Virus genome (UHGV): UHGV-0039399
Strand: one strand, 5' to 3'
DNA from: a virus
Length of the DNA stretch: 40,347 nt
Position 1 is the stretch's first letter. Each line of letters starts with the position of its first letter. The notes under the pieces are model-generated. The model had not been told where the DNA came from. It did not search any database and saw only the letters and a program-made list of their open reading frames with translations. Positions 242-35,356 of this stretch are shown in pieces. The position numbers and the translations under genes are program-made.

Positions 242-362
242 AGCTCACCCTCCTTTCATGTGACTTTTACGCATTTCAGCGCCACCGGATTTTTAAAGAG
301 CGTTTTATTTTGTTTGCAGTATACAAAACGGATACGTGTAAACAAGAATAAAAGCGCCATTA

Positions 363-378: not shown

Positions 379-400
379 CAATGACGCCATTTTGTAAATT

Positions 401-3876: not shown

Positions 3877-3975
3877 CTTGTTTCCCTCCGTGCTGTAAAC
3901 CTTTCGATTTCAGTTTACAAAACGGATTTGCGATCACAACACAAAACGTATAGTTATGTAATCGCAATCACAATA

Positions 3976-7687: not shown

Positions 7688-7741
7688 AATCTGATCTCCT
7701 TATATCCTTGATGATACTTAAAAAAATCATCTTCGTTAATT

Positions 7742-7779
7742 GCCGCACTTCCAGCGGCTGACCAGATTGTTAAAGAGCA
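7742..7779 (-). promoter_or_regulatory. candidate nutL (boxA TGCTCTTTAACAA plus boxB hairpin GCCGC-TGGAAGT-GCGGC)
   Basis: On the minus strand, an exact rrn-type boxA is followed 6 nt later by a 5-bp-stem hairpin, between the putative PL and the N-like gene. Confidence 0.55.
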
Positions 7780-7821
7780 AGTAAATCTCTTTTCCCTATC
7801 TTGCTTCCTCCTTTTGCTCGC

Positions 7822-7850
7822 AATATACGCCACGTAAAAACACCAGTCAA
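7822..7850 (-). promoter_or_regulatory. candidate PL promoter (-35 TTGACT, 17-bp spacer, -10 TATATT)
   Basis: Near-consensus sigma70 hexamers on the minus strand, upstream of nutL and the N-like gene. Confidence 0.5.
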
Positions 7851-7949
7851 CACATTTTGTATACTTTTTTGTAAAATTTATAAGCCATTGATATTTAAAC
7901 AATAAACATAGCTTTCTGTTTACGTTTTGGTGTTTTTATGGCAAAGAAA

Positions 7950-7972: not shown

Positions 7973-8620
7973 TTATGGCAGGTTTACGATCTTCGCATCA
8001 ACAACCACGCCAATGATTTTTGATTCTGGATTCATAGGGATCGGCGGGTACAACGGATTAAGTGAACGCAAAAGTTTTCTGCCTCCATCAGTAATCAACT
8101 GTTTAAACGTCGGTGTCTGCCCTTCCTCCAGTTGGGCTATAACCAGTTTGCCATCAATAGCTGGCGCGTGCGGGTCAACAAGTATCATAGTACCCGCCGG
8201 GATGCTTAACCCCTGAGGCGCGTTCATTGATTCACCTTTGGCAACCAGCCAGTAACTATCATCTGAACAAATAACGCTAGTCGTAACGTGTGGTAATGTT
8301 GATCGGCGTGTGTCTTCCATATTGTTTGCTGCGTCCTTCCAGTCAACAACCGGGTAACTTCCTAAATCACGAGGTGGCGCTCCCGGCAACGTGTTAGAAA
8401 CAGAATCATCAATGACCATACCATCATGAGTAACAGTGAATTGCCGACGCCCAAGCGCCCGCATGATCCGCGCAATATCTTCAAGATTCGGCTCACGGCG
8501 ACCGTTCAGCCAGTGAGAAAGGCCACCTTTAGTTATCCCCATAAGATCAGCCAATGAATCCTGGCTCATGCCCTGCGCCCGCATGAGTTGTTTTGCTAAG
8601 TCATACCATTTTGTTTTCAT
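7973..8620 (-). CDS. cI: CI-type repressor (HTH plus LexA-like S24 peptidase domain)
   Basis: N-terminal XRE-type HTH (QDSLADLMGITKGGLSHWLNG) and C-terminal autocleavage domain with the GESM serine motif; divergent from the rightward operon. Confidence 0.9.
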   Translation of the reverse strand: MKTKWYDLAKQLMRAQGMSQDSLADLMGITKGGLSHWLNGRREPNLEDIARIMRALGRRQFTVTHDGMVIDDSVSNTLPGAPPRDLGSYPVVDWKDAANNMEDTRRSTLPHVTTSVICSDDSYWLVAKGESMNAPQGLSIPAGTMILVDPHAPAIDGKLVIAQLEEGQTPTFKQLITDGGRKLLRSLNPLYPPIPMNPESKIIGVVVDAKIVNLP

Positions 8621-8925
8621 ATCGCTACCCTATAACCTAAAAAATTTTGATGCAAGTCACAAAATGTATTTTTCAATCCTTGATCTATTAACAACATTCT
8701 GTAAACTTGCTGACAAGGTAAGGCCATAGTTGCAAGGATGCAAGGAAAAAGATAAGGGAAAGCACAAAAGGCAAAAGCCTTAAGCTCTTTAAAAATCCGG
8801 TGGCGCTGCAATGCGTAAAACAAATATCACGCAACGGCGGGATCTGTTAAGCGGTCAATCACTGCTATCTAATGCCAATGGGATGCCCGCCCGCGCGTTC
8901 ACTCTAACCATAGGAGAAAACACGA
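8621..8925. promoter_or_regulatory. immunity-region divergent promoter/operator region (PRM/PR-equivalent)
   Basis: 305-bp AT-rich intergenic region between cI and the first rightward gene; contains TGCAAGG direct repeats and an ACAAAATGT motif also present near PL. Confidence 0.5.
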
Positions 8926-9182: not shown

Positions 9183-10100
9183 ATGAAGTGGTTTAAACAT
9201 GATAGCGATGCGAACCGCGACGAAAAACTTCAAAACGTTTTGTTAGATTATGGCCTGGAAGGTTATGGGCTTTATTGGTATTGCCTCGAACTGATAACTT
9301 ATGACGTAGATCAGCACAACCTCAATTTTGACCTTCGACATGATGCCAGAATCATCGCGCGTAACGTCGGATCGACTGAGAAGCGCATTGAGGAAATGAT
9401 GAAATACTTTATCGAAATTGGTCTATTCGAATGTTCTCAGGGGCATATAACTTGTTTAAAGTTATTAAAAAGGCTGGACCAATCAATGACATCTAAAAGC
9501 GCATATAGGGCAGCCATAAACACAGCGAAGGAGCAATTAAAATTAGAAAAGCTAATCAATACAGCGCCAAAGGGTCATGATGAGGTCATGATTGGGTCAT
9601 GTCAGGGTCATGATAGGGTCATGACCGGGTCATGGCAGGGTCATGAATTAGAATTAGAAGAAGAAAGAGAAAAAGAAAAAGAAAAAAACATATTGATCAG
9701 CGATGCTGATCGAAACGCTTTCGAAGACATCTTCTGGCCTGCATACCCACGGAAGGTTAACAAGCAGGCAGCGTTTAAGTCATTCAAAACGAGAGCAAAG
9801 GAATGGGTGAAGGAAAACAAATCAACTGTCCAGGCTTTCGCGGAAATGCTGGTTAAAGATCTTGAGCGCAGGAAAGGTTGGTTCGGTAGCGACAAGTTGC
9901 ACCCAACAACATATCTGAACCAGAAACGCTGGCTTGATGAACCGGAAGGAGGTAACAACCAGGATAGCAATGTTGAAGGTAAGAAGCTGCGCCGCATCGT
10001 CGGGAAGAGTGGTCAGATTTACGAACGAATGTTAACGGATGATGAGTATAACGAATATCTCCGACGGTTCGCGGAGTGGCAGAAATCACAACACGCTTGA
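9183..10100 (+). CDS. replication initiator / replisome organizer (O-like)
   Basis: N-terminal MKWFKHDSDANRDEKL...YGLYWYC domain typical of phage replisome organizers; iteron array embedded in the coding sequence as in lambda O. Confidence 0.75.
   Translation: MKWFKHDSDANRDEKLQNVLLDYGLEGYGLYWYCLELITYDVDQHNLNFDLRHDARIIARNVGSTEKRIEEMMKYFIEIGLFECSQGHITCLKLLKRLDQSMTSKSAYRAAINTAKEQLKLEKLINTAPKGHDEVMIGSCQGHDRVMTGSWQGHELELEEEREKEKEKNILISDADRNAFEDIFWPAYPRKVNKQAAFKSFKTRAKEWVKENKSTVQAFAEMLVKDLERRKGWFGSDKLHPTTYLNQKRWLDEPEGGNNQDSNVEGKKLRRIVGKSGQIYERMLTDDEYNEYLRRFAEWQKSQHA
9573..9649 (+). repeat. seven direct GGTCATG iterons at exact 11-bp phasing
   Basis: GGTCATG starts at 9573, 9584, 9595, 9606, 9617, 9628 and 9639. 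Confidence 0.75.
9573..9713. promoter_or_regulatory. candidate origin of replication (iterons, purine/A-rich tract, GATC-containing palindrome)
   Basis: Iterons are followed by an A/G-rich stretch (9646-9690) and the inverted repeat GATCAGC-gat-GCTGATC with two Dam sites; this mirrors ori-lambda inside gene O. Confidence 0.65.
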
Positions 10101-11238: not shown

Positions 11239-11271
11239 GTATACATTTTGTGAACCGGAGGAATTAACATT

Positions 11272-12390
11272 ATGTGTCAAAGAAAAATCTCGGATGAGGA
11301 ACTTATCACTGAATATAACAATGGTTTAACGTACAAACAGATCGCTGAAAAGTATGGCATGTCAAAACGCAATGTCGAACGCCTGGGCGCAAAACTGGCG
11401 AAGCGCGGTTTAATATCAACGCGTCGCGCTCCTGGTTTTGGTGTTAATGGCGAGTCGTTGCTAGTCGATAAAAACGGCAATGTTATCATGCGCTGGATTA
11501 AAACAGCCCGTGACCGCGAAGAAATGGAACAGCTAATGGAAGCGGCCCGCGACGCTTTAACGGATGAAATACCACGCGCGGAGGCTGTGCCAGTGCCGGA
11601 AATTGATTTTCAAAAAAGCCTGGCCCTTTATCCGGTGTTTGACCTGCACATCGGGGCGCTTGCTCACAAAGCGGAATGTGGCGAGAGCTACGACACTGGG
11701 ATCGCTGAACGCGTGTTAAATGACTTCTTTGACTACGCCGTTGGCGCTGCCCCTATGAGTGAAAAAGCGGTTCTGCTTCTCGGTGGCGACCTGCTTCACA
11801 CTGACGGATTGTTGCCAGTGACGCCATCAAGCAATCACGTTCTTGATTGCGATAGTCGCTATGCAAAACTTGTTTATGTGGCGATCCGGGCGGTACGTCG
11901 TGCGGTCGGGAAAATGTTGCTGAACCACAAGGATATTGAAATTCAGGTATTATCAGGCAACCACGACCAGTCTGGTATGATTTGGCTACGTGCTGCGCTG
12001 GCGGCTTTTTACGAAGATGAACCACGCGTGACTGTTGATGTGTCACCTACTATCGTACACCACACGCAGTACGGGAAAACATTCCTTGCTTACCACCACG
12101 GGCACACTATCAAAAAACCGGAAAACCTATTGGCTGCTTGCGTGGCTGACTGGCGCGAAGATTTCGGCAAGTCTGCGGCTGTTTACGCCCACTGCGGGCA
12201 CTGGCATCATCAAAGGATGATTGAATCATCGTTGGGCGTTGTTGAGTATCACGGCACGTTAGCTGGCAAGGATGCGTATTCGACTAATGGAGGATGGCGG
12301 TCGCGTCGCCTGGCAGCGGTTATTATTTACAGCCCGGATCATGGTGAAATCGGGCGCTTTGTTTATTACCCTGAATTTTCCATTTTGTAA
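11272..12390 (+). CDS. HTH domain fused to a calcineurin-like metallophosphoesterase
   Basis: N-terminal HTH (LTYKQIAEKYGMSKRNVERL), then phosphoesterase motifs in order: DLH, GGDLLH, SGNHD, HHGH, GHWHH; GGAGG RBS. Confidence 0.6.
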   Translation: MCQRKISDEELITEYNNGLTYKQIAEKYGMSKRNVERLGAKLAKRGLISTRRAPGFGVNGESLLVDKNGNVIMRWIKTARDREEMEQLMEAARDALTDEIPRAEAVPVPEIDFQKSLALYPVFDLHIGALAHKAECGESYDTGIAERVLNDFFDYAVGAAPMSEKAVLLLGGDLLHTDGLLPVTPSSNHVLDCDSRYAKLVYVAIRAVRRAVGKMLLNHKDIEIQVLSGNHDQSGMIWLRAALAAFYEDEPRVTVDVSPTIVHHTQYGKTFLAYHHGHTIKKPENLLAACVADWREDFGKSAAVYAHCGHWHHQRMIESSLGVVEYHGTLAGKDAYSTNGGWRSRRLAAVIIYSPDHGEIGRFVYYPEFSIL

Positions 12391-12428
12391 ACTAAATGCA
12401 ATGCCGTAATGGCTCTGGAGGTGAATAT

Positions 12429-18324: not shown

Positions 18325-20883
18325 TTATTCTTCGCTTCCGGTTAACTGCAGGACAAGCTCTTCAAGTTTTGCGATCCGTTCATCCATGACGGCAATGTTG
18401 GCGCGTAGGCTTGCGTTTTCCTCTTCCAGTTCGGTTACGCGGTTATCTGTTTCGCGTGCCACCTGGACAAGTAAACCAGTCACCGCAGCATAGTCAACAT
18501 TGAGATAACGCGTTTCTTCGCGTAGCTCGTTGCCGTCAGTGGTCGGGCCTTGCAATGCTTCACCGTAATGAGTAAACGATCCTACCGCTTCCGGCAGCGC
18601 TTCCATGACTTCCTGAGCGATAACGCCAGCGTAAGGCAGGCCGTTTTCCTTAAGGGTGTATGTGTACCCGTTCATTTTACGGATTGCTTCGGTAGCGTCA
18701 CCTATAACCTGAATGTTGTCTTTCAGGTCGCGATCTGATGATTGATTGAGCGTAGTGCAATTTACTACGCCGTTAACCTGAAATTTAACCGTGTTATCTG
18801 TATTAAGCTGGCAGAAAAAACCGTAACCCAAGTTACTGCCACTATCTGGATCTATATAACTATATTCCAGAACAGATCCTCGAGTATCGCTACCCCAAAA
18901 CAACATTTCTAAGTTTTTTACTGCTGTTTTTTTTGTTTCGATACTAAAGCGTCTGACGAAATCAGAGTCGTAGATGGAAATTTTTTTTAATGTTGAATCC
19001 CCGTTAAGCACCTTAAGTTTAGGCACTTCTATTTCGTTATTGACAAAGTTGTAGCCAATGGCAGTCCCACCAACTGGCGTTTCCCAATGGTTTTTTTCTA
19101 TGCGCCAGTTGCCGCCGTCAAATATGAAAGCGTAGTCCGGCGCACCTTCAGGTCTGTCAGTCTCATCAAATTTAATTGTTGGGTGTGCGCTCGTCAAAGT
19201 TAATGGATTGCTTACGTTTGACATTAATTTTGCAGTTTTGCCTATAAAAGACCCTTGATTTAAAGCAAAGTCGCCGTCTTCGTTCAATCCTGCATATATG
19301 TTTATATCATTACGCTGTAGGTGAGTTGTTGCCCACGCCTTACCATCACCCCTAAACTCGGTGTAAATGCGCGTTCTTGCTCTTTGCGCTCCTGATGTAT
19401 TGCTGAGTATGCTTTGTAATATGCCTCCGTTAGTGGTTTCATTATCCGAAGAAATTACAAGATTGAGATTTTTAAATTGTGGGCTATCAGCAAAGTCTAG
19501 GGACTGAAATTTCTTCCACGCGCTCCACTCCCAGCCATTTGAAGACTGAATAATGTATTGGCGCATATAAAAAACGCCATTTATAGCATTGTAAGGGAAA
19601 TAAAGCTGAGTGCATCCTGATGCGGTATTCGCGCCGTTTTTTATAACAAGCAATGCACCAGCAGCTGCCAACGGATAGCCACGATCAGTCGTTGCAGCCG
19701 AATTCGTTGTCTGATAATAAAAACCAGAATACTCGCCGGTAAGTGTATTAATGTTGGTTTCACTTAAGGCTGATCTTTTCTCGTGCATAACTTCAAGGTT
19801 TGTGCGCGCTTGCCCTGCATTGCGTCCTGCTGTGCCGCCTTGTGCAATATCTAACGGTTTCCATTGACCGATCTCGCTATCATAAACACCCCATGCACAA
19901 TTATTGCCGATTTCAAAATAAATTTTTCCGTTGCCAGAGTAAAGGCGAGTCTGGCTATCTGCAATTTGCATTAGGCGACTAACCTCATCTTTTCTTGCGT
20001 GCCTTGTCCATTGCGGGCCTGTTGATTCGCTCCACTTATAAGTGTAAGCACTGCCGGTAATATGCCCTATAAAAAGACCAGAAAACGCCGGGACACTACC
20101 TAAAGTCGGGCAAATAAAGCCAGACAAATAGCGCTCACCTGAAGCAATAGAAGGCCACCCGGCAGCCCCTTCCATGATGCGCAGAAAGCCAAGATAGCCT
20201 GATGGGTTTCCTGAAATATCCGGGCAATCTCTTGGGTTTGAGGAAAGACCAATGCTACTCCCTACAATACCTTGCGCCTGGTTACGATAATTTAGCGCAT
20301 CGGCTGCTGATTTTGCTGCATTGGTTTCGCTGGTTGCTGCCGCTGTTTTGCTGTTGCTGGCTGCTGTTTCACTGGCTTTTGCTGCATCCTGTGACGCTTT
20401 TGCTGCGGTTGCTGAGTTCGCTGCTGCTGTTTTTGATGCCGCCGCCGCGTTTTTGTCTGATTCTGTTTTTTGGGCGTTGGCTGTTGATTTCGCTGTTTCT
20501 GCGCGAATGTCGGCAAGAAGTTGTTCCATCTGACCATCACCGCCGAACTCGTTCCACCATTCAACGGCTGTTGCAATCTCTGATTCCTTGCCCTGGTAGT
20601 AACGCAGAGTTTCGGCTACATCCTGGGCAAGCCCATCAACTGAGATCGAGTCAGAAAGCAGAATGCTAAATTTTGTCCCGGCAGCGATTGCAGGGTTAGC
20701 CGCTGGCGTTACTGACAGTTCTGTACCGCTCTTGATTTCGGTGACGGTAAAGATCTGGATAGGGTTGCTGATGGCAATAAGCGTGCAACCAACACGAATG
20801 AGAGAAAGCGGCTCGGAGAAGTTTGTCCCCGTGCCTTTAACAGTGTTGCCATTAACGGCAATTGTTCCAGTTGTGTAAATCAT
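18325..20883 (-). CDS. side tail fiber with C-terminal intramolecular chaperone (S74-type) domain
   Basis: 852 aa; Ala/Ser/Thr-rich fibrous repeats; C-terminus carries the SSDRDLKDNI motif and coiled coil typical of self-cleaving chaperone domains; GGAG RBS. Confidence 0.8.
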   Translation of the reverse strand: MIYTTGTIAVNGNTVKGTGTNFSEPLSLIRVGCTLIAISNPIQIFTVTEIKSGTELSVTPAANPAIAAGTKFSILLSDSISVDGLAQDVAETLRYYQGKESEIATAVEWWNEFGGDGQMEQLLADIRAETAKSTANAQKTESDKNAAAASKTAAANSATAAKASQDAAKASETAASNSKTAAATSETNAAKSAADALNYRNQAQGIVGSSIGLSSNPRDCPDISGNPSGYLGFLRIMEGAAGWPSIASGERYLSGFICPTLGSVPAFSGLFIGHITGSAYTYKWSESTGPQWTRHARKDEVSRLMQIADSQTRLYSGNGKIYFEIGNNCAWGVYDSEIGQWKPLDIAQGGTAGRNAGQARTNLEVMHEKRSALSETNINTLTGEYSGFYYQTTNSAATTDRGYPLAAAGALLVIKNGANTASGCTQLYFPYNAINGVFYMRQYIIQSSNGWEWSAWKKFQSLDFADSPQFKNLNLVISSDNETTNGGILQSILSNTSGAQRARTRIYTEFRGDGKAWATTHLQRNDINIYAGLNEDGDFALNQGSFIGKTAKLMSNVSNPLTLTSAHPTIKFDETDRPEGAPDYAFIFDGGNWRIEKNHWETPVGGTAIGYNFVNNEIEVPKLKVLNGDSTLKKISIYDSDFVRRFSIETKKTAVKNLEMLFWGSDTRGSVLEYSYIDPDSGSNLGYGFFCQLNTDNTVKFQVNGVVNCTTLNQSSDRDLKDNIQVIGDATEAIRKMNGYTYTLKENGLPYAGVIAQEVMEALPEAVGSFTHYGEALQGPTTDGNELREETRYLNVDYAAVTGLLVQVARETDNRVTELEEENASLRANIAVMDERIAKLEELVLQLTGSEE

Positions 20884-20916
20884 CGCAATGACTCCATTAT
20901 GTTAATTAACGGAATA

Positions 20917-20925
20917 ATTCTACCA
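20917..20925 (-). promoter_or_regulatory. candidate extended -10 (TGgTAGAAT) for the tail fiber gene
   Basis: Minus-strand TGGTAGAAT about 30 nt upstream of the start codon, in the divergent intergenic region. Confidence 0.3.
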
Positions 20926-21051
20926 TTTTGTGATCTATGTTGCATTTTCTGTTCACACAAAACGTATTTGTTGATTTATATCAATATACGAAATGTGGTT
21001 TTGTCGGATATTTAAGCCACCGGATGAGCAAGCAAGAATGAGGATTCAAAA

Positions 21052-21300
21052 ATGAAAAACGTGTTCAAAGTGGTTTTGTTCGCTGCGGCTGTAGCTCTTA
21101 CTGGCTGTGCTGTTGACAAAGAGGCTGCATTGCATAACCTGCCGAATAGCGGAGTGATTCCACAAGATGTTGTATATGATGGAAGCGGTCATCTTGTCTA
21201 TGACACTGAAAAACTGCCGTATACTGGGCAATGGTGTCATGAACTCGATCACAACATGCGCCGCATCGGTAGCCCTTCGAACTGTGTAGCTAACTACTAA
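21052..21300 (+). CDS. small lipoprotein, candidate Cor/Llp-like superinfection exclusion protein
   Basis: 82 aa; signal peptide with lipobox LTGC; GAGGA RBS; opposite strand between J and the tail fiber gene, ending in a strong terminator. Confidence 0.6.
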   Translation: MKNVFKVVLFAAAVALTGCAVDKEAALHNLPNSGVIPQDVVYDGSGHLVYDTEKLPYTGQWCHELDHNMRRIGSPSNCVANY

Positions 21301-21304
21301 AAGA

Positions 21305-21335
21305 AAACCCCGCGCGAAGCGGGGTTGTTTTTTTA
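21305..21335. terminator. bidirectional rho-independent terminator (lipoprotein gene / J)
   Basis: CCCCGC-gcgaa-GCGGGG hairpin followed by a T-run on the plus strand and an A-run/U-tract on the minus strand. Confidence 0.7.
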
Positions 21336-28637: not shown

Positions 28638-28690
28638 TTTATCACCTTGTCATTTTGTGATCGCCATCACGCTAAATCATACCAAAACGG

Positions 28691-28718
28691 TTGATAGCGT
28701 TTTTACAATATGTATATT
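28691..28718 (+). promoter_or_regulatory. candidate sigma70 promoter for the L-M cassette (-35 TTGATA, 16-bp spacer, -10 TATATT)
   Basis: Near-consensus hexamers about 20 nt upstream of the first cassette ORF; the CAAAACGGTT motif sits just upstream. Confidence 0.45.
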
Positions 28719-28734
28719 GTACTCAAAAGGAAGC

Positions 28735-28920
28735 ATGGTTAACAAAATGGCGCGGAGGTGTGAGGTGGATGATAAGGTGTGGAGGTTGACGGTATTCCTT
28801 AGTGATGGCAGGGAAATGACTGTGGCCCTGTATAAAGATGAAGGCGAGGCACTTACTGACGCGCTCTTACTCGCTGAAGATGAACGAGTTTTTGGATACA
28901 GGATCGAACCTGTCAAATGA
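28735..28920 (+). CDS. small acidic protein (61 aa), L-M cassette gene 1
   Basis: ORF with AAAGGAAG RBS on the strand opposite the tail operon. Confidence 0.5.
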   Translation: MVNKMARRCEVDDKVWRLTVFLSDGREMTVALYKDEGEALTDALLLAEDERVFGYRIEPVK

Positions 28921-28933
28921 GAGGTTAACAAAA

Positions 28934-29284
28934 ATGCAAAAATACAGTTTAGAGGTCTGGACTGATAAATGTGAATGGGAGCGCATGGGCCTGTTTGATA
29001 CATACGCCGCAGCGCGTGATGAAGGTCGTGAGTTACTTCGCTGTTGGTCTGGCGCTCGTGATTTTGATATTACTCCGGTCCAGGTGCCGGATATGGTGGA
29101 AGAGATGAACCCGAAAGATATTAACTTCAACGTCAATGTTGAATTTTCAGACTCTATGGATCAGGCTTGCCCTGGTGAAATTCACGCAAAAGGTTTTCCG
29201 GCAGACGATCCAGAAGCAAAACGCGAATACGAAAAAGCTGCGAAAGACTTCTGCATTGATAACCTGGGCGCATTCGATAAATAA
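28934..29284 (+). CDS. acidic protein (116 aa), L-M cassette gene 2
   Basis: GAGAGG RBS; start refined from the track ORF 28838-29284; strongly acidic C-terminal half. Confidence 0.55.
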   Translation: MQKYSLEVWTDKCEWERMGLFDTYAAARDEGRELLRCWSGARDFDITPVQVPDMVEEMNPKDINFNVNVEFSDSMDQACPGEIHAKGFPADDPEAKREYEKAAKDFCIDNLGAFDK

Positions 29285-29293
29285 GGGGGACAC

Positions 29294-29542
29294 ATGGGTC
29301 GGCGCAACCACGGCGATTATGTGTACACGCTGAAACAGGCCGCCCGCCTCGTCGGGTATCATGAGCACGAATTTATTGATTTGCTGATTGAGCGCGGGAT
29401 ACTTTACCAGGTCTGTCTGACGCTGTACCCAAAAGCGAAATACCTACAGGAAAAGTTATTTATCATCATGACGGACGAAAACCAGGTAAATCACTCATTC
29501 GTCACTGATAAAGGTGTCAACTATCTGCGTGATAACTTATAG
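29294..29542 (+). CDS. small HTH DNA-binding protein (82 aa), L-M cassette gene 3
   Basis: GGGGG RBS; N-terminal excisionase/MerR-like HTH (YTLKQAARLVGYHEHEFIDLLIERGIL). Confidence 0.55.
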   Translation: MGRRNHGDYVYTLKQAARLVGYHEHEFIDLLIERGILYQVCLTLYPKAKYLQEKLFIIMTDENQVNHSFVTDKGVNYLRDNL

Positions 29543-29551
29543 GCGGCAATT

Positions 29552-29623
29552 ATGGATGAGGTTATCGAGAATGTTTTGGTAGTGGCTGGCGCAATTGCCA
29601 TAGTTTATGCCTTTCTGAGCTAA
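29552..29623 (+). CDS. 23-aa hydrophobic peptide, L-M cassette gene 4
   Basis: Manually found ORF MDEVIENVLVVAGAIAIVYAFLS; very short, tentative. Confidence 0.25.
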   Translation: MDEVIENVLVVAGAIAIVYAFLS

Positions 29624-29634
29624 TGGGGTGGATT

Positions 29635-29772
29635 ATGAAAATCGAAGTTTTAGCATTAATCGCAATGGGCTTGATCGTCTTCGGTGTTCACGCTGCTGGT
29701 TGGGACTGGGCTGCAATAGCAAACAACATGGCGCACGCTCACCCAATGAGCTTGCTGTATATTCACTACTGA
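29635..29772 (+). CDS. 45-aa membrane peptide, L-M cassette gene 5
   Basis: Manually found ORF MKIEVLALIAMGLIVFGVHAAGWDW...; followed immediately by a strong terminator. Confidence 0.35.
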   Translation: MKIEVLALIAMGLIVFGVHAAGWDWAAIANNMAHAHPMSLLYIHY

Positions 29773-30359: not shown

Positions 30360-30533
30360 GATCCCCCCCCTCTCATAAGTTACATATTGCATACATCTTT
30401 ACGCGCTTCTACGCGAAAAATGATAACTTCGTCACAAGAATTATACCAAGTTTACGAAATGGCTTCACACAGGACGCAACAAGATGTATACAGAAAGCAA
30501 GAAGAGAAAGCAGTACCAACAAAGGGGGCCAAT

Positions 30534-30689
30534 ATGGAACGCTATGTAGTGGTAATGCTAAACAAAGCATTCGAACAGGTGGAAGTTGCGATTGTGAAGG
30601 GTTTTGATGATGCATTCAAATACGGTCAATTCATGATGAATGCAAAAGAAGATGAATACCGTGATTTCTTCCTGAAAGTGGTCAACTGA
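30534..30689 (+). CDS. small protein (51 aa), M-tape-measure cassette gene 1
   Basis: AAGGGGG RBS; opposite strand to the tail operon; the track's longer ORF 30330-30689 has weaker start context. Confidence 0.45.
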   Translation: MERYVVVMLNKAFEQVEVAIVKGFDDAFKYGQFMMNAKEDEYRDFFLKVVN

Positions 30690-30709
30690 TTGATTGCGCG
30701 GGGTGAGTT

Positions 30710-30964
30710 ATGAAATTGGTGGCGATTGGCAAAAACCTGAAAGCACAGAAAAACGCACAGGAACGGATCATCAAAAAAGGCAAGGCTTTATTAAATTCTT
30801 TCCTGAAAAAAGAGGCCAACCCCAAAAAATTACGCGATGGCTACGGCTATAAATTTGACATCAACCCCGATTGGCGGTTATTCAGCGAAGATTTAAAGAT
30901 GTGGTTAATTATTGACCATCTGGAATACAACCGCCACTGTGGCGTAAAAGGGGCGCATAAATGA
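30710..30964 (+). CDS. basic Lys-rich protein (84 aa), cassette gene 2
   Basis: ORF with GGGGTGAG RBS-like context. Confidence 0.5.
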   Translation: MKLVAIGKNLKAQKNAQERIIKKGKALLNSFLKKEANPKKLRDGYGYKFDINPDWRLFSEDLKMWLIIDHLEYNRHCGVKGAHK

Positions 30965-30972
30965 GGTGAAAT

Positions 30973-31065
30973 ATGGATGACGATAAATTCACCTGGCGGG
31001 AGATCTGGAACATCTGGCAGGTGATGTTTGCTCGCAGCTACATAGCAAGAAACGGCAGGTTGTGA
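30973..31065 (+). CDS. 30-aa peptide, cassette gene 3
   Basis: Manually found ORF with GAGGTGA RBS; tentative. Confidence 0.25.
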   Translation: MDDDKFTWREIWNIWQVMFARSYIARNGRL

Positions 31066-31083
31066 TTTGCGGAGGAAAATAAA

Positions 31084-31254
31084 ATGAAAAACCCGGCAAA
31101 TAAAAGCAATGTAAAACGTATGGCATGGGTGCTAAAATATATGGATAGCAAAGGGGATACATATACATGTCCATTTTTCAGGTATACTGACGCGGTATTT
31201 GCCAGAAGTGTACACGGAGGGAAAATTGAAAGAGGGTATACAAGATTTGAGTAA
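31084..31254 (+). CDS. small protein (56 aa), cassette gene 4
   Basis: Manually found ORF MKNPANKSNVKRMAWVLKYMDSKGDTYTCPFF...; GGAGG RBS. Confidence 0.4.
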   Translation: MKNPANKSNVKRMAWVLKYMDSKGDTYTCPFFRYTDAVFARSVHGGKIERGYTRFE

Positions 31255-31289
31255 ATTTATTCAGTAAATTAATAACATAATGAAGGTTT

Positions 31290-31472
31290 ATGATGATTAT
31301 TCACGAGACTGAAGAATGCAGAAGGATTGATCTTAGTGTTGAAGATGATGGAAGATTATGGATCGTTAGCGACTGCGAGATGATTGTAATAAACAAAAAG
31401 CAAGCTGACGAACTGATAAGAGCATTACAGCTTTATGCAAGCGGCGAATTTAAGAATGATGAAATTGAATAA
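31290..31472 (+). CDS. small acidic protein (60 aa), cassette gene 5
   Basis: ORF with GAAGG RBS, followed by a terminator. Confidence 0.5.
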   Translation: MMIIHETEECRRIDLSVEDDGRLWIVSDCEMIVINKKQADELIRALQLYASGEFKNDEIE

Positions 31473-31475
31473 AGA

Positions 31476-31506
31476 TAACCCCGGCATTGTACCGGGGTTT
31501 TGTTTA
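31476..31506. terminator. rho-independent terminator between the convergent cassette and tape measure gene
   Basis: CCCCGG-cattgta-CCGGGG hairpin followed by TTTTGTTTATTT. Confidence 0.65.
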
Positions 31507-33852
31507 TTTCCTGCGAGGTTGCAACATACCGCCAGGTCGTTGTGATTCCCTTGCCATCATTTTCATTGCTACGCGCTCCATCGTCTGTTCAAGTCTGCGA
31601 CCGTCTTCGTCGCTAAACCCGTTCGTGGTATGGACGTTTATGTTAACGGGCATATTTATGCCGCCACCATTGAAGAGATCACGGCCAGGAATCACCCTAC
31701 CATTCTCGCCAGGAATCATATACTGACGCCCGTTGCTCGTCTGGAATAGCTCAGGAATCCCGTGTTCACCTACGCGATACAGACTACCACCATTAACAGA
31801 ACCACCATTATAACGCCCGCCGCCAAAAATTGACGTTGCCAGCGACATGATCGCAGAAAGCGCCGCAGCACCAGCCGCCGCCCAGCTACCGCCAGTCGAT
31901 GCAGCAGTAGCCGCCGCAGCAGGGGCCGCCGCAGCCGCGATCTCACCCTGGGCAGCAACAGCGCCAGCCGTTGTACTTGCCTGGGTAGCTTTGCTTTGCG
32001 TTTCCATCATCAACTGATCTGCTATCCAGTTAGCGGCAATTTCTGATAGTTTATTGCCAACAGTATTGAGTATGCTGCTTCCCAGGTTGGCGAAAACCTC
32101 ACTTAGCGATTGAGTACCGTTTAGCAGTCCGGTAAGGGCATTACCCATGCCACCTTTCAGGCCGCTGACGCACGCACCAATCAGGCCGTTTGTGTCGCTT
32201 TGCGCCTGCCATTGTTCCCATTTCAGATCTCTGATCTGTTGTTCATATTCCAATAGAGCCTGTTTCTGTTGCGCCTCTGTAGCGCCCAGGTCTATTAGCA
32301 TTTGTTTTCGAACTGCCCATTCATTTTGCGCCTGCTTGATTGGGTCAATTTCTCCCTTAAGCTGGTCCATCGGGCTAACTATGTGGTCCCATTTATCGCG
32401 TAGCTCATCAACCGGGATCTGAGCTAATTCGTCCTTCAGTTCCTTGCCTATCCCTTTCTGCGCGGCCTTGTACTCAAGGAGGGTTATTTTGCCCTGGGCG
32501 AACGCAGCATCAATGGCCTTGCCGTTCTCCAGCGCCTTACGCATGGCTGCGGCGTCCTTGTTGTACTGGTCGGACACTTTTATACCTTCATCACCAAGCC
32601 GATCAGCTTCTGATTTCTTGTCCTTTTTGCCCTTTTTCCCTTTCTTCGGCTTACCAACTGGCTGATCGAATCCCGTGATCTTGCCATCGTCAGCCTCACC
32701 CTGTTTCTGCATAAACTCATCATAGGCGGCTGTGGCTTTTTCTATGTCATTCTTAAATGTCATGAATTTGCCAATGGTAGGGCCAAATTTCTTCTCGTTG
32801 TTGCTGTTTAGCTCTTCCTTGCGTTTGTCAATGATTTCCTTCATCCATTTGTAGCCATCCATTAGCGCCTTGATTGGCGTCACCATTCTGATGATTTCTT
32901 CCGCCACCTCTCCCGCTTTAACAGCAACATCGTCAAACATGTCGATGAACTCGCTACCAGCGGTTTTAAGTGTATTGAAGCAGGTTGCGGCGAATTTTGC
33001 GCCTTTACCTAATCCCTCAACGCCACCAGTGATTAAGTCTATTGCTGACACAACGCCATCTGATATGCCGAAAAGATCGTCTAGCTGTTCGACAAGCCCC
33101 ATTACCTCAACTTTAAGCTCGTTGAAGGCCATGCCGGACGTGCGCGGCAACTGTGCGAACTTCTCGTTCGTTTCCTGCGTGGATGCCTGGATCGCGTTGA
33201 GCATCCTTTCAGCCGTGATCTTACCGTCCAGCATTTCGGCGCGGAATTGACCCATTGATAACCCCATTTGGCGGGCCATTTCCTGTATGATTGTTGGTGT
33301 GTTGTCACGTATTGAGTTAAATTCTTCAGCCTGCAACACGCCAGCATCAATAGCCTGGCGGAACTGGCGCATGGAGTTAGATAGCTGTTCCGCAGACACG
33401 CCGCCCAGGTTGCCTAGTTTTTGCAGCGTGCTGACCAGGTTTAAGACCTGGCCTTCCGTAGCGGATGTATTTTTTAGCGATATAGCAAGCCCTTGCCACA
33501 GGTCGCCAGTGTCCTTGAGGCTTTGGCCTGTCTCTTTTGATATATCTTTCAGTCTGTTGAAAACGCGTTCCGTGGCCTCTGCTTCACCTGTAAGCAGTTT
33601 GATTTTCACGCGAAGCATTTTTGCTTGCTCCGCCATGTCAATAAACTGGCGCACAGCCTCCGCAGCAAGTAACAGATGGATGACCCTGGATAGTGCTTTG
33701 ATTGAAGTCTTAAGCGTATTCACCTGGCGGTCAGCGCGTTTTGCGCCACGCTCGATACTGTCAAAAGCCTGGTCTGCCTGTCGTTGAGCAACGAGAAGTT
33801 GACCAGTTTTTGCATCAACTTCGTAATAGATTGTACCTAAACTACCCGACAT
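31504..33852 (-). CDS. tail tape measure protein
   Basis: 782-aa, largely alpha-helical, Ala/Gln-rich ORF with a Gly-rich C-terminal region, positioned between tail chaperone and M. Confidence 0.9.
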   Translation of the reverse strand: MSGSLGTIYYEVDAKTGQLLVAQRQADQAFDSIERGAKRADRQVNTLKTSIKALSRVIHLLLAAEAVRQFIDMAEQAKMLRVKIKLLTGEAEATERVFNRLKDISKETGQSLKDTGDLWQGLAISLKNTSATEGQVLNLVSTLQKLGNLGGVSAEQLSNSMRQFRQAIDAGVLQAEEFNSIRDNTPTIIQEMARQMGLSMGQFRAEMLDGKITAERMLNAIQASTQETNEKFAQLPRTSGMAFNELKVEVMGLVEQLDDLFGISDGVVSAIDLITGGVEGLGKGAKFAATCFNTLKTAGSEFIDMFDDVAVKAGEVAEEIIRMVTPIKALMDGYKWMKEIIDKRKEELNSNNEKKFGPTIGKFMTFKNDIEKATAAYDEFMQKQGEADDGKITGFDQPVGKPKKGKKGKKDKKSEADRLGDEGIKVSDQYNKDAAAMRKALENGKAIDAAFAQGKITLLEYKAAQKGIGKELKDELAQIPVDELRDKWDHIVSPMDQLKGEIDPIKQAQNEWAVRKQMLIDLGATEAQQKQALLEYEQQIRDLKWEQWQAQSDTNGLIGACVSGLKGGMGNALTGLLNGTQSLSEVFANLGSSILNTVGNKLSEIAANWIADQLMMETQSKATQASTTAGAVAAQGEIAAAAAPAAAATAASTGGSWAAAGAAALSAIMSLATSIFGGGRYNGGSVNGGSLYRVGEHGIPELFQTSNGRQYMIPGENGRVIPGRDLFNGGGINMPVNINVHTTNGFSDEDGRRLEQTMERVAMKMMARESQRPGGMLQPRRK

Positions 33853-33890
33853 GATTTTACCTCACTAAAAAGTGTGATCCAGATCCATAT

Positions 33891-33934
33891 TTTATACAAA
33901 ATGTCTTCACTTCAACGTATACATTTTGTATAAA
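33891..33934. promoter_or_regulatory. perfect 14-bp inverted repeat TTTATACAAAATGT-N16-ACATTTTGTATAAA (candidate operator)
   Basis: Exact inverted repeat in the intergenic region between the tape measure start and the third opposite-strand cassette. Confidence 0.5.
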
Positions 33935-34101
33935 GAAGTCAAAGGAAGAGAGAGAAAAGAAGGTCGAAGGAATAAGGGATTAAGACTTGAGGCACAGCCA
34001 ACCGAAGGAACGAGGGAGGCGAAAACCACTAAAACTAACAGGAAACAGAAAAAGGATTTAAAAGACCGGATGAACCGGAGGAAGCAAAAGAGGATAAGAA
34101 A

Positions 34102-34188
34102 ATGAAAGGCTACTACCGACCCAACGAGCATGAGCATTATGCCGACTTTATCGAAGAAATGCTGAAAGCACTTAAAAACAAGAAATAA
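34102..34188 (+). CDS. 28-aa peptide, tape-measure-chaperone cassette gene 1
   Basis: Manually found ORF MKGYYRPNEHEHYADFIEEMLKALKNKK after a purine-rich leader. Confidence 0.3.
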   Translation: MKGYYRPNEHEHYADFIEEMLKALKNKK

Positions 34189-34201
34189 GCGGGGCGGGTG
34201 A

Positions 34202-34309
34202 ATGGACACAATCAAAACGGTTATAGATGTATATATTACAGCATGGTTAGCATTTAATGTGATGGCTGTGCTGGTGCTGGCAATGACAACCGAAGATAAA
34301 CGCAATTGA
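34202..34309 (+). CDS. 35-aa membrane peptide, cassette gene 2
   Basis: Manually found ORF MDTIKTVIDVYITAWLAFNVMAVLVLAMTTEDKRN. Confidence 0.35.
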   Translation: MDTIKTVIDVYITAWLAFNVMAVLVLAMTTEDKRN

Positions 34310-34319
34310 GAGGTGTATC

Positions 34320-34622
34320 ATGGAACTGGTAATTTGCTTCGTCGGATTCATCGCAACTATGGTTGTAGCTCAGAAAAAACACCTGAATATGCTCCCGGCA
34401 TTCTTTGGTGCGCTGATTTGTTGGCCTGCCGTATTGATTTACGCGCTGTGCGTTAACAAAAAGATGTTCAAACACTACGTTGATGCAGTGACTTTCGTAA
34501 GCATGGAGTTCCCGAACGCAACTGACGTACAGAAAGCACAGGTAGCAACTTACATTTACGATAACGTGTACGATATTCATGACCTGGATGAAGCAAGATG
34601 CCGATTCGCAGCATACAAATAA
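34320..34622 (+). CDS. membrane protein (100 aa; two TM segments plus soluble C-terminus), cassette gene 3
   Basis: GAGAGGTG RBS; hydrophobic N-terminal half; followed by a strong terminator. Confidence 0.6.
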   Translation: MELVICFVGFIATMVVAQKKHLNMLPAFFGALICWPAVLIYALCVNKKMFKHYVDAVTFVSMEFPNATDVQKAQVATYIYDNVYDIHDLDEARCRFAAYK

Positions 34623-34626
34623 AGAT

Positions 34627-34654
34627 AAAGGCCCGGTTAATTCCGGGCTTTTTC
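34627..34654 (+). terminator. rho-independent terminator ending the third cassette
   Basis: GCCCGG-ttaatt-CCGGGC hairpin followed by TTTTTCTTGTTT. Confidence 0.65.
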
Positions 34655-35317
34655 TTGTTTGCGTTTTTTCATCAATTCCAGCACCCTTTTAGCCGCTCCC
34701 ATTTGCTCATCATAATCACGTTTATTTATCTGAACGTTTGGCTTACGTTTCTCGTTTCTTTCGTCTGGCGGCGTTTTAGCGCGTACAGCGGCACGATACC
34801 CGGTCATGGTCATACCCCACGCCTCAGACTCAGACAATCCCAGGTGAGCAACGGCAGAGTAAACATACTCAAGGATGTCGAATGTCTGTTTATAATCGCC
34901 TTCCTGCTCATCGCTAACGTCTTCCTCCGGTCCGTCACCAATTAAACCGTGGAACATGCAGTGTTGCGCCAGTGTGATAACGTCGCTGGTGGGCATTAAT
35001 CCGGGTTTTAGTCTCAACTTACCCGAAGGAGTGAAGCTACATTCGCCCAATAACTGGCCTATTTCGCATTCTGAGCAACATTTCAATATGTGGATGGACG
35101 TTTGCACCAGTTCACCATAACAACGCGCCAGAATGCGATTGCGGAGGTCTGGATCAACTGGCATACGCCGTGGGTATTTGCCACCGTGAACCGTTGCGAA
35201 GTATTCGACCAGTTCCCTGTCACCGCCGATCTTAGCCATTGCAGCAAAGCAGGGATTAAATTCGTAACGTCTGCCATCAACCACAACCGCAAACTGTCCT
35301 GTTCGAACGTGAATCAT
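34637..35317 (-). CDS. putative tail assembly chaperone (G/GT position)
   Basis: 226-aa ORF between the tail tube gene and tape measure; AAGGTG RBS at the refined ATG; assignment by position only. Confidence 0.45.
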   Translation of the reverse strand: MIHVRTGQFAVVVDGRRYEFNPCFAAMAKIGGDRELVEYFATVHGGKYPRRMPVDPDLRNRILARCYGELVQTSIHILKCCSECEIGQLLGECSFTPSGKLRLKPGLMPTSDVITLAQHCMFHGLIGDGPEEDVSDEQEGDYKQTFDILEYVYSAVAHLGLSESEAWGMTMTGYRAAVRAKTPPDERNEKRKPNVQINKRDYDEQMGAAKRVLELMKKRKQEKARN

Positions 35318-35327
35318 AGTTGTCACC

Positions 35328-35356
35328 TTAAAAAATAAAGGGGCCAAGCGGCCCCG
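35328..35356 (-). terminator. rho-independent terminator after the major tail gene (attenuator)
   Basis: GGGGCC-loop-GGCCCC hairpin followed by CUUUAUUUUUU on the minus strand, 17 nt after the tail tube gene stop. Confidence 0.6.

Follow-up and report, generated by a model that had tools for sequence, protein, structure and literature searches.

What role could a perfect inverted repeat play within the tail gene cluster of a phage? The question is raised by the virus genome UHGV-0039399, of which a stretch of 40,347 nucleotides (the window, at its full length) was analysed, and which belongs to the mEpimmI group of phages (mEp021, mEp554, mEp044, mEp010, mEp013, mEp515). In a 250-bp gap, with the start of the tape measure gene on one side and plus-strand open reading frames (ORFs) on the other, two 14-bp arms, TTTATACAAAATGT (33891-33904) and ACATTTTGTATAAA (33921-33934), are complementary at 14/14 positions and have 16 nt between them. 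A first-pass annotation had described an exact inverted repeat at 33891-33934, and a new reading of both arms and of the 16-nt spacer bears this out. This tail repeat is the sole perfect inverted repeat of at least 12 nt within 80 nt in the whole window, as well as the longest one, and by a rough estimate, 40 kb of sequence would be expected to hold well below 0.05 perfect 14-mer repeats with a short spacer. We consider it rather probable that the repeat is made of two inverted operators of the phage's own lambda-CI-like repressor, placed on the promoter of a variable antisense tail cassette. The observations that carry this answer are the repeat itself, its conservation, the enrichment of its core, the geometry that it shares with the leftward early promoter PL and its co-occurrence with one repressor family.

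Each arm holds one operator-like unit, named here T1 and T2:

33891-33904, plus strand: left arm, which holds T1; its core is invariant in 24 distinct relatives.
33893-33907, plus strand: T1, an operator-like 15-bp site TATACAAAATGTCTT, whose final 2 bases overlap a -35-like hexamer.
33921-33934, minus strand: right arm, which holds T2; TTTTGTATA is invariant in the relatives.
33918-33932, read on the minus strand: T2, an operator-like 15-bp site TATACAAAATGTATA, which overlaps a -10-like hexamer.

T2 is a perfect 6-3-6 palindrome (TATACA-AAA-TGTATA on the minus strand), and T1 is partly symmetric, one half following the consensus and the other being degenerate. Both have the length (14-18 bp) and the partial two-fold symmetry expected of an operator. 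Their centres, at 33900 and 33925, lie 25 bp apart, which resembles the spacing of adjacent lambda operators and suits pairwise cooperativity (~23-25 bp). The same 25 bp is found at PL and at a second tail cassette, and 24 bp at 3914/3938 and 11240/11264. The perfect 14-bp symmetry of the tail repeat arises because both operators are near consensus and have their conserved halves facing outward.

The pattern of conservation points in the same direction. Among 38 related loci, which reduce to 24 distinct sequences, the 12-nt core TATACAAAAYGK of both arms and the spacing of the arms are invariant in 24/24, and changes are seen in the 16 nt between the arms, in the -35-like hexamer and at the end of the -10-like one. 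The constraint lies on the sequence of the arms and on the distance between them, and it therefore has the signature of a protein-binding site and not of a hairpin. Core position 12 is G or T in each arm independently, with all four combinations seen and 19/24 sequences mispaired. A possible co-variation, the ATGT of the window against the ATGG of relatives at PL and T1, was rejected as part of this free G/T variation.

The core is also clearly enriched over the AT-rich background of the window. The degenerate 12-mer TATACAAAAYGK has 4 exact copies against 0 expected, and 10 copies with at most one mismatch against 0.93 expected; the 15-mer TATACAAAATGTATA, with at most 3 mismatches, is found 11 times where 1.41 are expected, and 0/100 shuffles reach 11; and the 5 exact copies of the 9-mer ACAAAATGT are all non-coding (5/5). 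The pattern WATACR-N3-YGK, which was derived from other repressor lineages and then applied to the window, gives 17 matches against 4.9 expected, 14 of the 17 being non-coding in a window where non-coding DNA accounts for 11.6% (binomial p = 4e-11). For the whole 14-nt half-site with at most 3 mismatches, 12 copies against 7.4 expected make a slight and unclear enrichment. The idea of a recurring half-site put forward in the first-pass annotation, together with a comparison against shuffled sequence, thus stands for the 12-15-nt core TATACAAAAYGK(NNN) and fails for the full 14-mer with its outer TT; the related copies that it placed near 7850, 8660 and 20925 were each located. The sites are dispersed over at least 8 loci of the window and most are kept in position in mEp021, in whose genome enrichment and location follow a similar pattern.

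Several of these sites surround the repressor gene itself:

7973-8620, minus strand: cI-like repressor gene (HTH_3 and Peptidase_S24 domains), whose product is the proposed binder.
7849-7863, minus strand: PL operator TATACAAAATGTGTT, overlapping the -35 of TTGACT-17-TATATT.
7824-7838, plus strand: inverted PL operator TATACGCCACGTAAA, over the -10.
8656-8670, plus strand: operator-like site GTCACAAAATGTATT in the gap between cI and the rightward operon.
8691-8705, minus strand: operator-like site TTTACAGAATGTTGT in the same gap.

The same motif is therefore present on the early promoters flanking the repressor gene, and these cI-flanking sites are invariant in 43 relatives. The closest solved relative of the window CI is the lambda repressor (3BDN, E = 1.3e-19). 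The CI orthologue of mEp021 gives immunity to all tested members of the group, the operators not being defined in that work (PMC11893012). For CI (7973-8620), we propose TATACA-N3-YGK(NNN) as a putative operator consensus.

If so, the motif should travel with the DNA-binding domain of the repressor. We compared the DNA around CI homologues of 38-57% identity that have the same or a similar recognition helix; these came from a full-length protein search, the N-terminal 72 residues alone giving only fragments, and a profile search of genome contigs with the CI alignment returned no match. The lineages L101, L104, L106, L108 and L111, and L110 with a variant, carry one to four copies of WATACR-N3-YGK within ~120 bp upstream of cI, where ~0.015 copies per region are expected by chance. 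In L101, L106, L108 and L111, three (T/A)ATACR-N3-YGK sites spaced ~33 and ~26 bp occupy the ~120-bp cI-cro gap, and the site nearest cI overlaps the -10 in the register of T2 (CGTATAAT, CGTATGAT versus TGTATAAA here). A pair of sites 25 bp apart lies on PL in L108 and L106, and L104, whose CI is 57% identical with an identical recognition helix, has an inverted 25-bp pair on PL as in the window. L110, a Shewanella homologue, shows a GTACA variant of the motif. In contrast, the control L109, whose CI has a homologous C-terminal domain and a helix-turn-helix of P22-C2 type, has no copy of the motif and P22-like operators instead. Found in the six lineages whose recognition helix is similar and absent in L109, the motif appears from this co-occurrence to follow the N-terminal DNA-binding domain of the repressor.

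The tail repeat shares more with PL than the motif, since both can be fitted to one promoter layout together with a second reverse-strand cassette of the tail region:

33906-33911, plus strand: -35-like hexamer TTCACT, read from the sequence, in the register of the PL TTGACT and of the second-cassette TTCACA.
33929-33934, plus strand: -10-like hexamer TATAAA, 17 nt after the -35-like hexamer and without the usual final T.
Tail repeat module, plus strand: TATACAAAATGTC-TTCACT-17-TATAAA.
7822-7863, minus strand: PL module TATACAAAATGTG-TTGACT-17-TATATT (-35 at 7845-7850, -10 at 7822-7827), which drives an N-like gene.
30451-30492, plus strand: second-cassette module TTTACGAAATGGC-TTCACA-17-TATACA (equivalent in mEp021 at 42049), composed of an operator TTTACGAAATGGCTT at 30451-30465, a -35 at 30464-30469 and a -10 at 30487-30492.
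30476-30490, minus strand: inverted operator TATACATCTTGTTGC of the second cassette, over the -10.

The three modules have the same 42-nt layout (operator, -35, 17 nt, and -10 with an inverted operator over it), with operator centres exactly 25 bp apart and conserved halves outward. TTCACT-17-TATAAA agrees with the sigma-70 promoter consensus at 9/12 positions, the final T of the -10 being absent, and stands in the same register as PL. The register of its -10-like hexamer also matches TATATT (PL), TATAAT/TATGAT (cI promoters of L101/L108) and TATATT (PL of L108). The first-pass annotation had imagined a shared operator for a phage or host regulator linking immunity to the tail cassette. With the motif on PL and in the cI gap, the PL spacing reproduced base for base at the tail repeat and the tracking of the N-terminal helix-turn-helix of CI, our comparison supports such a link and narrows the candidate regulator to the phage's own CI-like repressor.

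How would this pair of operators work? In a lysogen, two repressor dimers would fill T1 and T2 cooperatively, T1 overlapping the upstream edge of the -35 by 2 bp and T2 covering the -10 of a weak rightward promoter. This promoter would drive the cassette 34102-34622, which lies antisense between the DUF6246 and tape-measure genes. Occlusion of the -10 by T2 would keep the cassette silent in the lysogen, and absence or cleavage of the repressor, upon infection or SOS induction, would let the promoter fire together with the early promoters. The immunity switch would probably also control the tail cassette, and the operator layout argues against expression of the cassette from a repressed prophage.

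Several points weigh against such a repression by CI. The main uncertainty is the putative promoter, which is weak on paper: a consensus promoter scan of 33600-34800 called none, the -10-like hexamer reads TATAAA, TATAAG or TATAGA in the relatives and never has the conserved last T, and there is no conservation of the -35-like hexamer either (TTCACT, TTTACT, TTTATT, TTTGCT). What we infer at the tail repeat from sequence comparison is that the repressor binds, that the promoter works and in which direction it is regulated, and this comparison has a uniform side: a search for a heteroimmune phage among the IMG/VR relatives with this tail module met the same CI (92-99% identity) in all of them. 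Besides, late-region 'moron' cassettes are normally expressed from the prophage, and one that is repressed in the lysogen would be out of the ordinary; a lipoprotein exclusion gene of the window carries similar sites. Finally, the same -42/-16 geometry is found at cI's own promoter in L101 and L108, and because of this shared layout, geometry alone cannot separate repression from an activation of the lambda-PRM type.

That activation is the core of the alternative that survives best, although we hold it to be unlikely. Here, the repressor bound at T1 (~-41.5) would activate the weak promoter by contacting RNA polymerase, and T2 would trim its activity at high repressor, so that the cassette, as a lysogenic-conversion unit, would be expressed in strict dependence on the amount of repressor. 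Lambda CI activates PRM from OR2, and T1 occupies the matching position; the tail promoter is weak, as PRM is; and the cI promoters of L101 and L108 show the same succession of operator, -35, 17 nt and operator over the -10. Moreover, exclusion lipoproteins and similar late-region cassettes usually act in lysogens (PMC11893012). The difficulty with this dual control comes from T2, a perfect consensus palindrome whose 12-nt core is kept in all relatives, whereas the site over the -10 of the cI promoter in other lineages begins with a weaker AATACA. Cooperative filling would occlude the -10 whenever repressor is present, and the layout is identical to that of PL, which is necessarily repressed. 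We rank PRM-like control below simple repression because a full-consensus T2 would be occupied as long as there is repressor in the cell.

Slightly less plausible again is the binding of the motif by a different regulator, which could be a host transcription factor, a Cro-like protein or an early DNA-binding phage protein. Cro is expected to share the operators of CI where a cro gene exists, and an invariant TGTGAT as well as a perfect CRP-like palindrome stand beside some of the sites. Yet, the motif tracks the N-terminal domain of CI and is absent with a P22-type domain, and no Cro-like gene is found in the window between cI and the replication genes (8621-8925). Similarly, the Rha protein, named as a possible binder in the first-pass annotation, is an unlikely one because mEp021 keeps the sites with a different gene at the position of the Rha-like gene. 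To our knowledge, the motif fits no consensus of an E. coli regulator (informal comparison with CRP, IHF, Fis, LexA, TyrR, Fur, NsrR and others), and a text search of the literature for the motif gave unrelated matches only. As regards the neighbourhood of cI, the first rightward ORF of the window encodes an 84-residue protein that resembles replication initiators in their N-terminal domain; in L104, with its 57% identical CI and same recognition helix, a 75-residue HTH_3 Cro-like gene is found at 9649-9876.

A third alternative, which we judge quite improbable, sees in the repeat a likeness intrinsic to promoters: TATACAAAATG upstream of the -35 would serve as an UP element, the TATA of the right arm would simply be the -10, and the modules would be duplicated promoters of which the tail copy is unbound. 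The three modules do share their register with the hexamers, and proximal UP subsites lie where the A-tract falls (~-43 to -40). However, it is the operator core that is conserved while the hexamers drift, the right arm is kept well past TATA, pairs exist where no promoter fits (e.g. 11240-11278, straddling a start codon), and three-site cI-cro arrays are found in other lineages. The last alternative, a nucleic-acid hairpin (a stem-loop acting in processing, stability, translation control or termination of the late minus-strand mRNA upstream of the tape-measure start, or a DNA cruciform), can be dismissed as most improbable: a 14-bp stem is predicted in the minus-strand RNA, but it folds no better than shuffles (z = -1.23; 23/200 shuffles fold as well), is AU-rich with 2 G-C pairs in 14, a 16-nt loop and no U-run where a terminator would have a stable G+C-rich stem, is not called by a terminator scan of the tail repeat, shows no covariation above controls (10/14 pairs never vary, 498/500 shuffles score at least as high, and 19/24 sequences are unpaired at the only variable inner position), keeps a loop length that a hairpin has no need to fix, and matches no Rfam family.

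Next to the repeat, TGTGAT (33873-33878, plus strand) is invariant in the 24 distinct relatives (alignment columns 8-13) among variable neighbours. Some 60-61 nt separate it from the putative transcription start of the cassette downstream, and on the opposite strand it precedes the tape-measure start codon by ~25 nt. As a class I CRP site (TGTGA-N6-TCACA near -61.5), it would have a poor second half, TCCAT in the window and TCTCT in relatives; in some relatives, an additional, third operator-like sequence, CATACAAAATGTGAT, includes TGTGAT. A CRP half-site, what is left of a third operator and a piece of the tape-measure 5' region are all conceivable identities for TGTGAT.

The unit downstream of the repeat is organized as follows:

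31504-33852, minus strand: tape measure gene, with its start codon 39 nt from the left arm.
33935-34101, plus strand: purine-rich leader (78% purine, 11 GGA), which holds a CCGG-ATGAA-CCGG hairpin.
34066-34078, plus strand: this small CCGG-ATGAA-CCGG hairpin, kept at the cassette head even when the cargo is replaced.
34102-34188, plus strand: 28-residue ORF (MKGYYRPNEHEHYADFIEEMLKALKNKK) at the cassette head, conserved even when the downstream cargo is replaced.
34202-34309, plus strand: 35-residue hydrophobic ORF, variable cargo.
34320-34622, plus strand: 100-residue membrane-like ORF, variable cargo.
34627-34652, plus strand: Rho-independent terminator closing the cassette, terminator-like on the minus strand too.
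34637-35347, minus strand: DUF6246 tail gene, the other flank.

The cassette ORFs are on the plus strand with a ribosome-binding site. PHROG and Pfam searches assigned no function to the three of them, the 28-residue ORF being without a PHROG match, and Rfam contains no family matching the leader. The cargo differs among the window, mEp021 (a secreted protein), UMNK88, strain 127 and STEC308 (a TagO-like lipoprotein), and the repeat, the leader and the 28-residue ORF are kept. These conserved elements with differing cargo therefore define a reverse-strand accessory cassette, in a 'moron' position within the late operon, with its own terminator and variable cargo between conserved flanks. GGA-rich purine leaders are also observed at 7700-7821 (minus strand) after PL, at 8709-8810 (plus strand) after the rightward promoter and at 30493-30564 (plus strand) after the second-cassette promoter. 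They have the words GGAAGCAA and GATA(A)GGGAAA in common; an anti-Rho role, CsrA binding or an enhancement of translation are possibilities.

Beyond the tail repeat, PL and the cI gap, the dispersed operator-like sites are the following:

20920-20934, minus strand: site ATCACAAAATGGTAG in the gap between the start of a tail-fibre gene and a plus-strand lipoprotein gene.
20954-20968 and 20985-20999, plus strand: sites upstream of the plus-strand lipoprotein (exclusion) gene, making three with 20920-20934.
3914-3952, plus strand: tandem pair with 24-bp spacing, between genes of the early leftward operon (mEp021 16542/16566).
320-334, plus strand, and 384-398, minus strand: convergent pair on either side of a CRP-like palindrome, with a nutR2-like element immediately downstream.
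11240-11278, plus strand: pair, 24 bp apart, in the 33-bp gap between a Rha/Ant-like gene and a 372-residue gene.
12377-12391: site whose position is kept in mEp021.

Every reverse-strand cassette of the tail region is preceded by motif sites, in positions that are kept in mEp021, as are those of the sites at PL, in the cI gap and at 11240/11264. At the equivalent of the lipoprotein gene, mEp021 has a perfect TATACAAAATGTATA fused to TATAAT. The positions of the 320/384 pair are kept at 20076/20143 in mEp021 and at 19320/19388 in L104.

Some of these loci deserve a closer description. In the region 20884-21333, the plus-strand lipoprotein gene (21052-21300, PHROG lipoprotein) has its own terminator and lies between two minus-strand tail-fibre genes; it is of the Lpp exclusion type known from mEp phages. 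Further reverse-strand cassettes within the tail genes are found at 28640-29772 and 30451-31472. The first of them is preceded by an 8-2-8 palindrome TACAATATGTATATTGTA (28704-28721) like operators of the 434 type, and its equivalent in mEp021 includes a gene annotated as an antirepressor. The 11240-11254 site occupies the same module junction as mEp021 7724-7735, with the Rha/Ant-like gene here and a zinc-ribbon gene in mEp021. Between the two phages, the central A-tract of the site is flipped (TATACATTTTGTGAA here, TATACAAAACGTAAA in mEp021), a difference compatible with a protein that reads the two half-sites and not the centre. Within the 852-residue tail-fibre ORF, a perfect 11-nt inverted repeat with arms 58 nt apart (TATAAAAAACG at 19566-19576, CGTTTTTTATA at 19635-19645) looks like a degenerate convergent operator pair, as at 320/384.

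Between the 320-334 and 384-398 sites, a perfect CRP-consensus palindrome (TGTGA-TATAAA-TCACA) occupies 363-378 and carries a terminator annotation in mEp021. On the minus strand, TTGTTT (345-340), 16 nt and TATACT (323-318) make up a candidate promoter whose -10 is covered by an operator-like site; a nutR2-like boxA/boxB (~260-300) follows it immediately. This candidate promoter could explain the third nut site of these phages. Elsewhere, eight tandem or inverted iterons of the GGGTCATGA type (9573-9646) within the replication gene 9183-10100 are probably the replication origin.

Taken at face value, TATACA-N3-YGK would give a prevalent and little-studied group of gut coliphages its first concrete consensus for the operators of its repressor. 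If it holds, accessory cassettes of the tail region would answer to the immunity repressor, and such 'morons' would not automatically be expressed in lysogens. The predicted regulon of ~8 loci is testable with existing reagents, namely the pRep021 plasmid and the mEp phages, and it includes a suggested promoter ahead of the third, so far unexplained, nut site in this group. More tentatively, mEpimmI phages may possess a genome-wide repressor network instead of a single switch, with operator pairs on PL, on the rightward promoter, ahead of nutR2 and on all reverse-strand tail-cassette promoters. In this speculative scheme, the repressor would time or tune accessory genes, either as hidden 'early' genes or as PRM-style, repressor-activated conversion genes, and tetramers or octamers of the repressor might also join distant pairs through long-range loops.

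How does this arrangement compare with known systems? Its closest parallel is the OR/OL system of lambda, where CI (PDB 3BDN) binds pairwise and cooperatively, and with which it shares a two-domain repressor (a helix-turn-helix and a self-cleaving S24 domain) and partly symmetric operator-like sites, one half conserved and the other variable, with neighbours ~24-25 bp apart and one site on the -35 edge, the other on the -10. Unlike in lambda, the sites of the window follow a 15-bp TATACA-N3-YGKNNN that is unrelated to the 17-bp lambda sequence, the tail pair is inverted with its conserved halves outward and lies ~25 kb from cI within the tail cluster, and many more operator pairs (at least 8 loci) are accompanied by no evident Cro gene. 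The extra, putative distal repressor sites, which oligomers could bridge, recall the lambda OL-OR octamer and FL/FR of coliphage 186, and an adjacent pair of sites is the unit bound by a lambda-type tetramer. However, 22-26 kb would have to be spanned here versus 0.3-2.4 kb in the known cases, and the tail pair looks like a local promoter control.

The cassette itself resembles lambdoid morons (bor/lom of lambda, the HK97 morons, exclusion genes of the cor/llp type), being a unit with its own terminator between conserved late genes, on the strand opposite to the tail genes and with a cargo that varies in close relatives. Classical morons are regarded as constitutively expressed in the prophage, with no connection to the immunity repressor, whereas the putative promoter described here is bracketed by repressor-type operators in an early-promoter layout. 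As for the distribution of sites, it is reminiscent of the stoperators of cluster A mycobacteriophages (L5 gp71), whose repressor has many sites scattered outside the main early promoter, most of them in short gaps between genes; in the window, 14/17 matches are non-coding and spread over at least 8 loci. Stoperators are nevertheless single asymmetric sites of 13-14 bp that are bound by a monomer of an unrelated repressor family, are oriented with transcription and block elongation, while the sites of the window are partly palindromic, occur on both strands, often form inverted or tandem pairs 24-25 bp apart and in several cases cover promoter-like hexamers.

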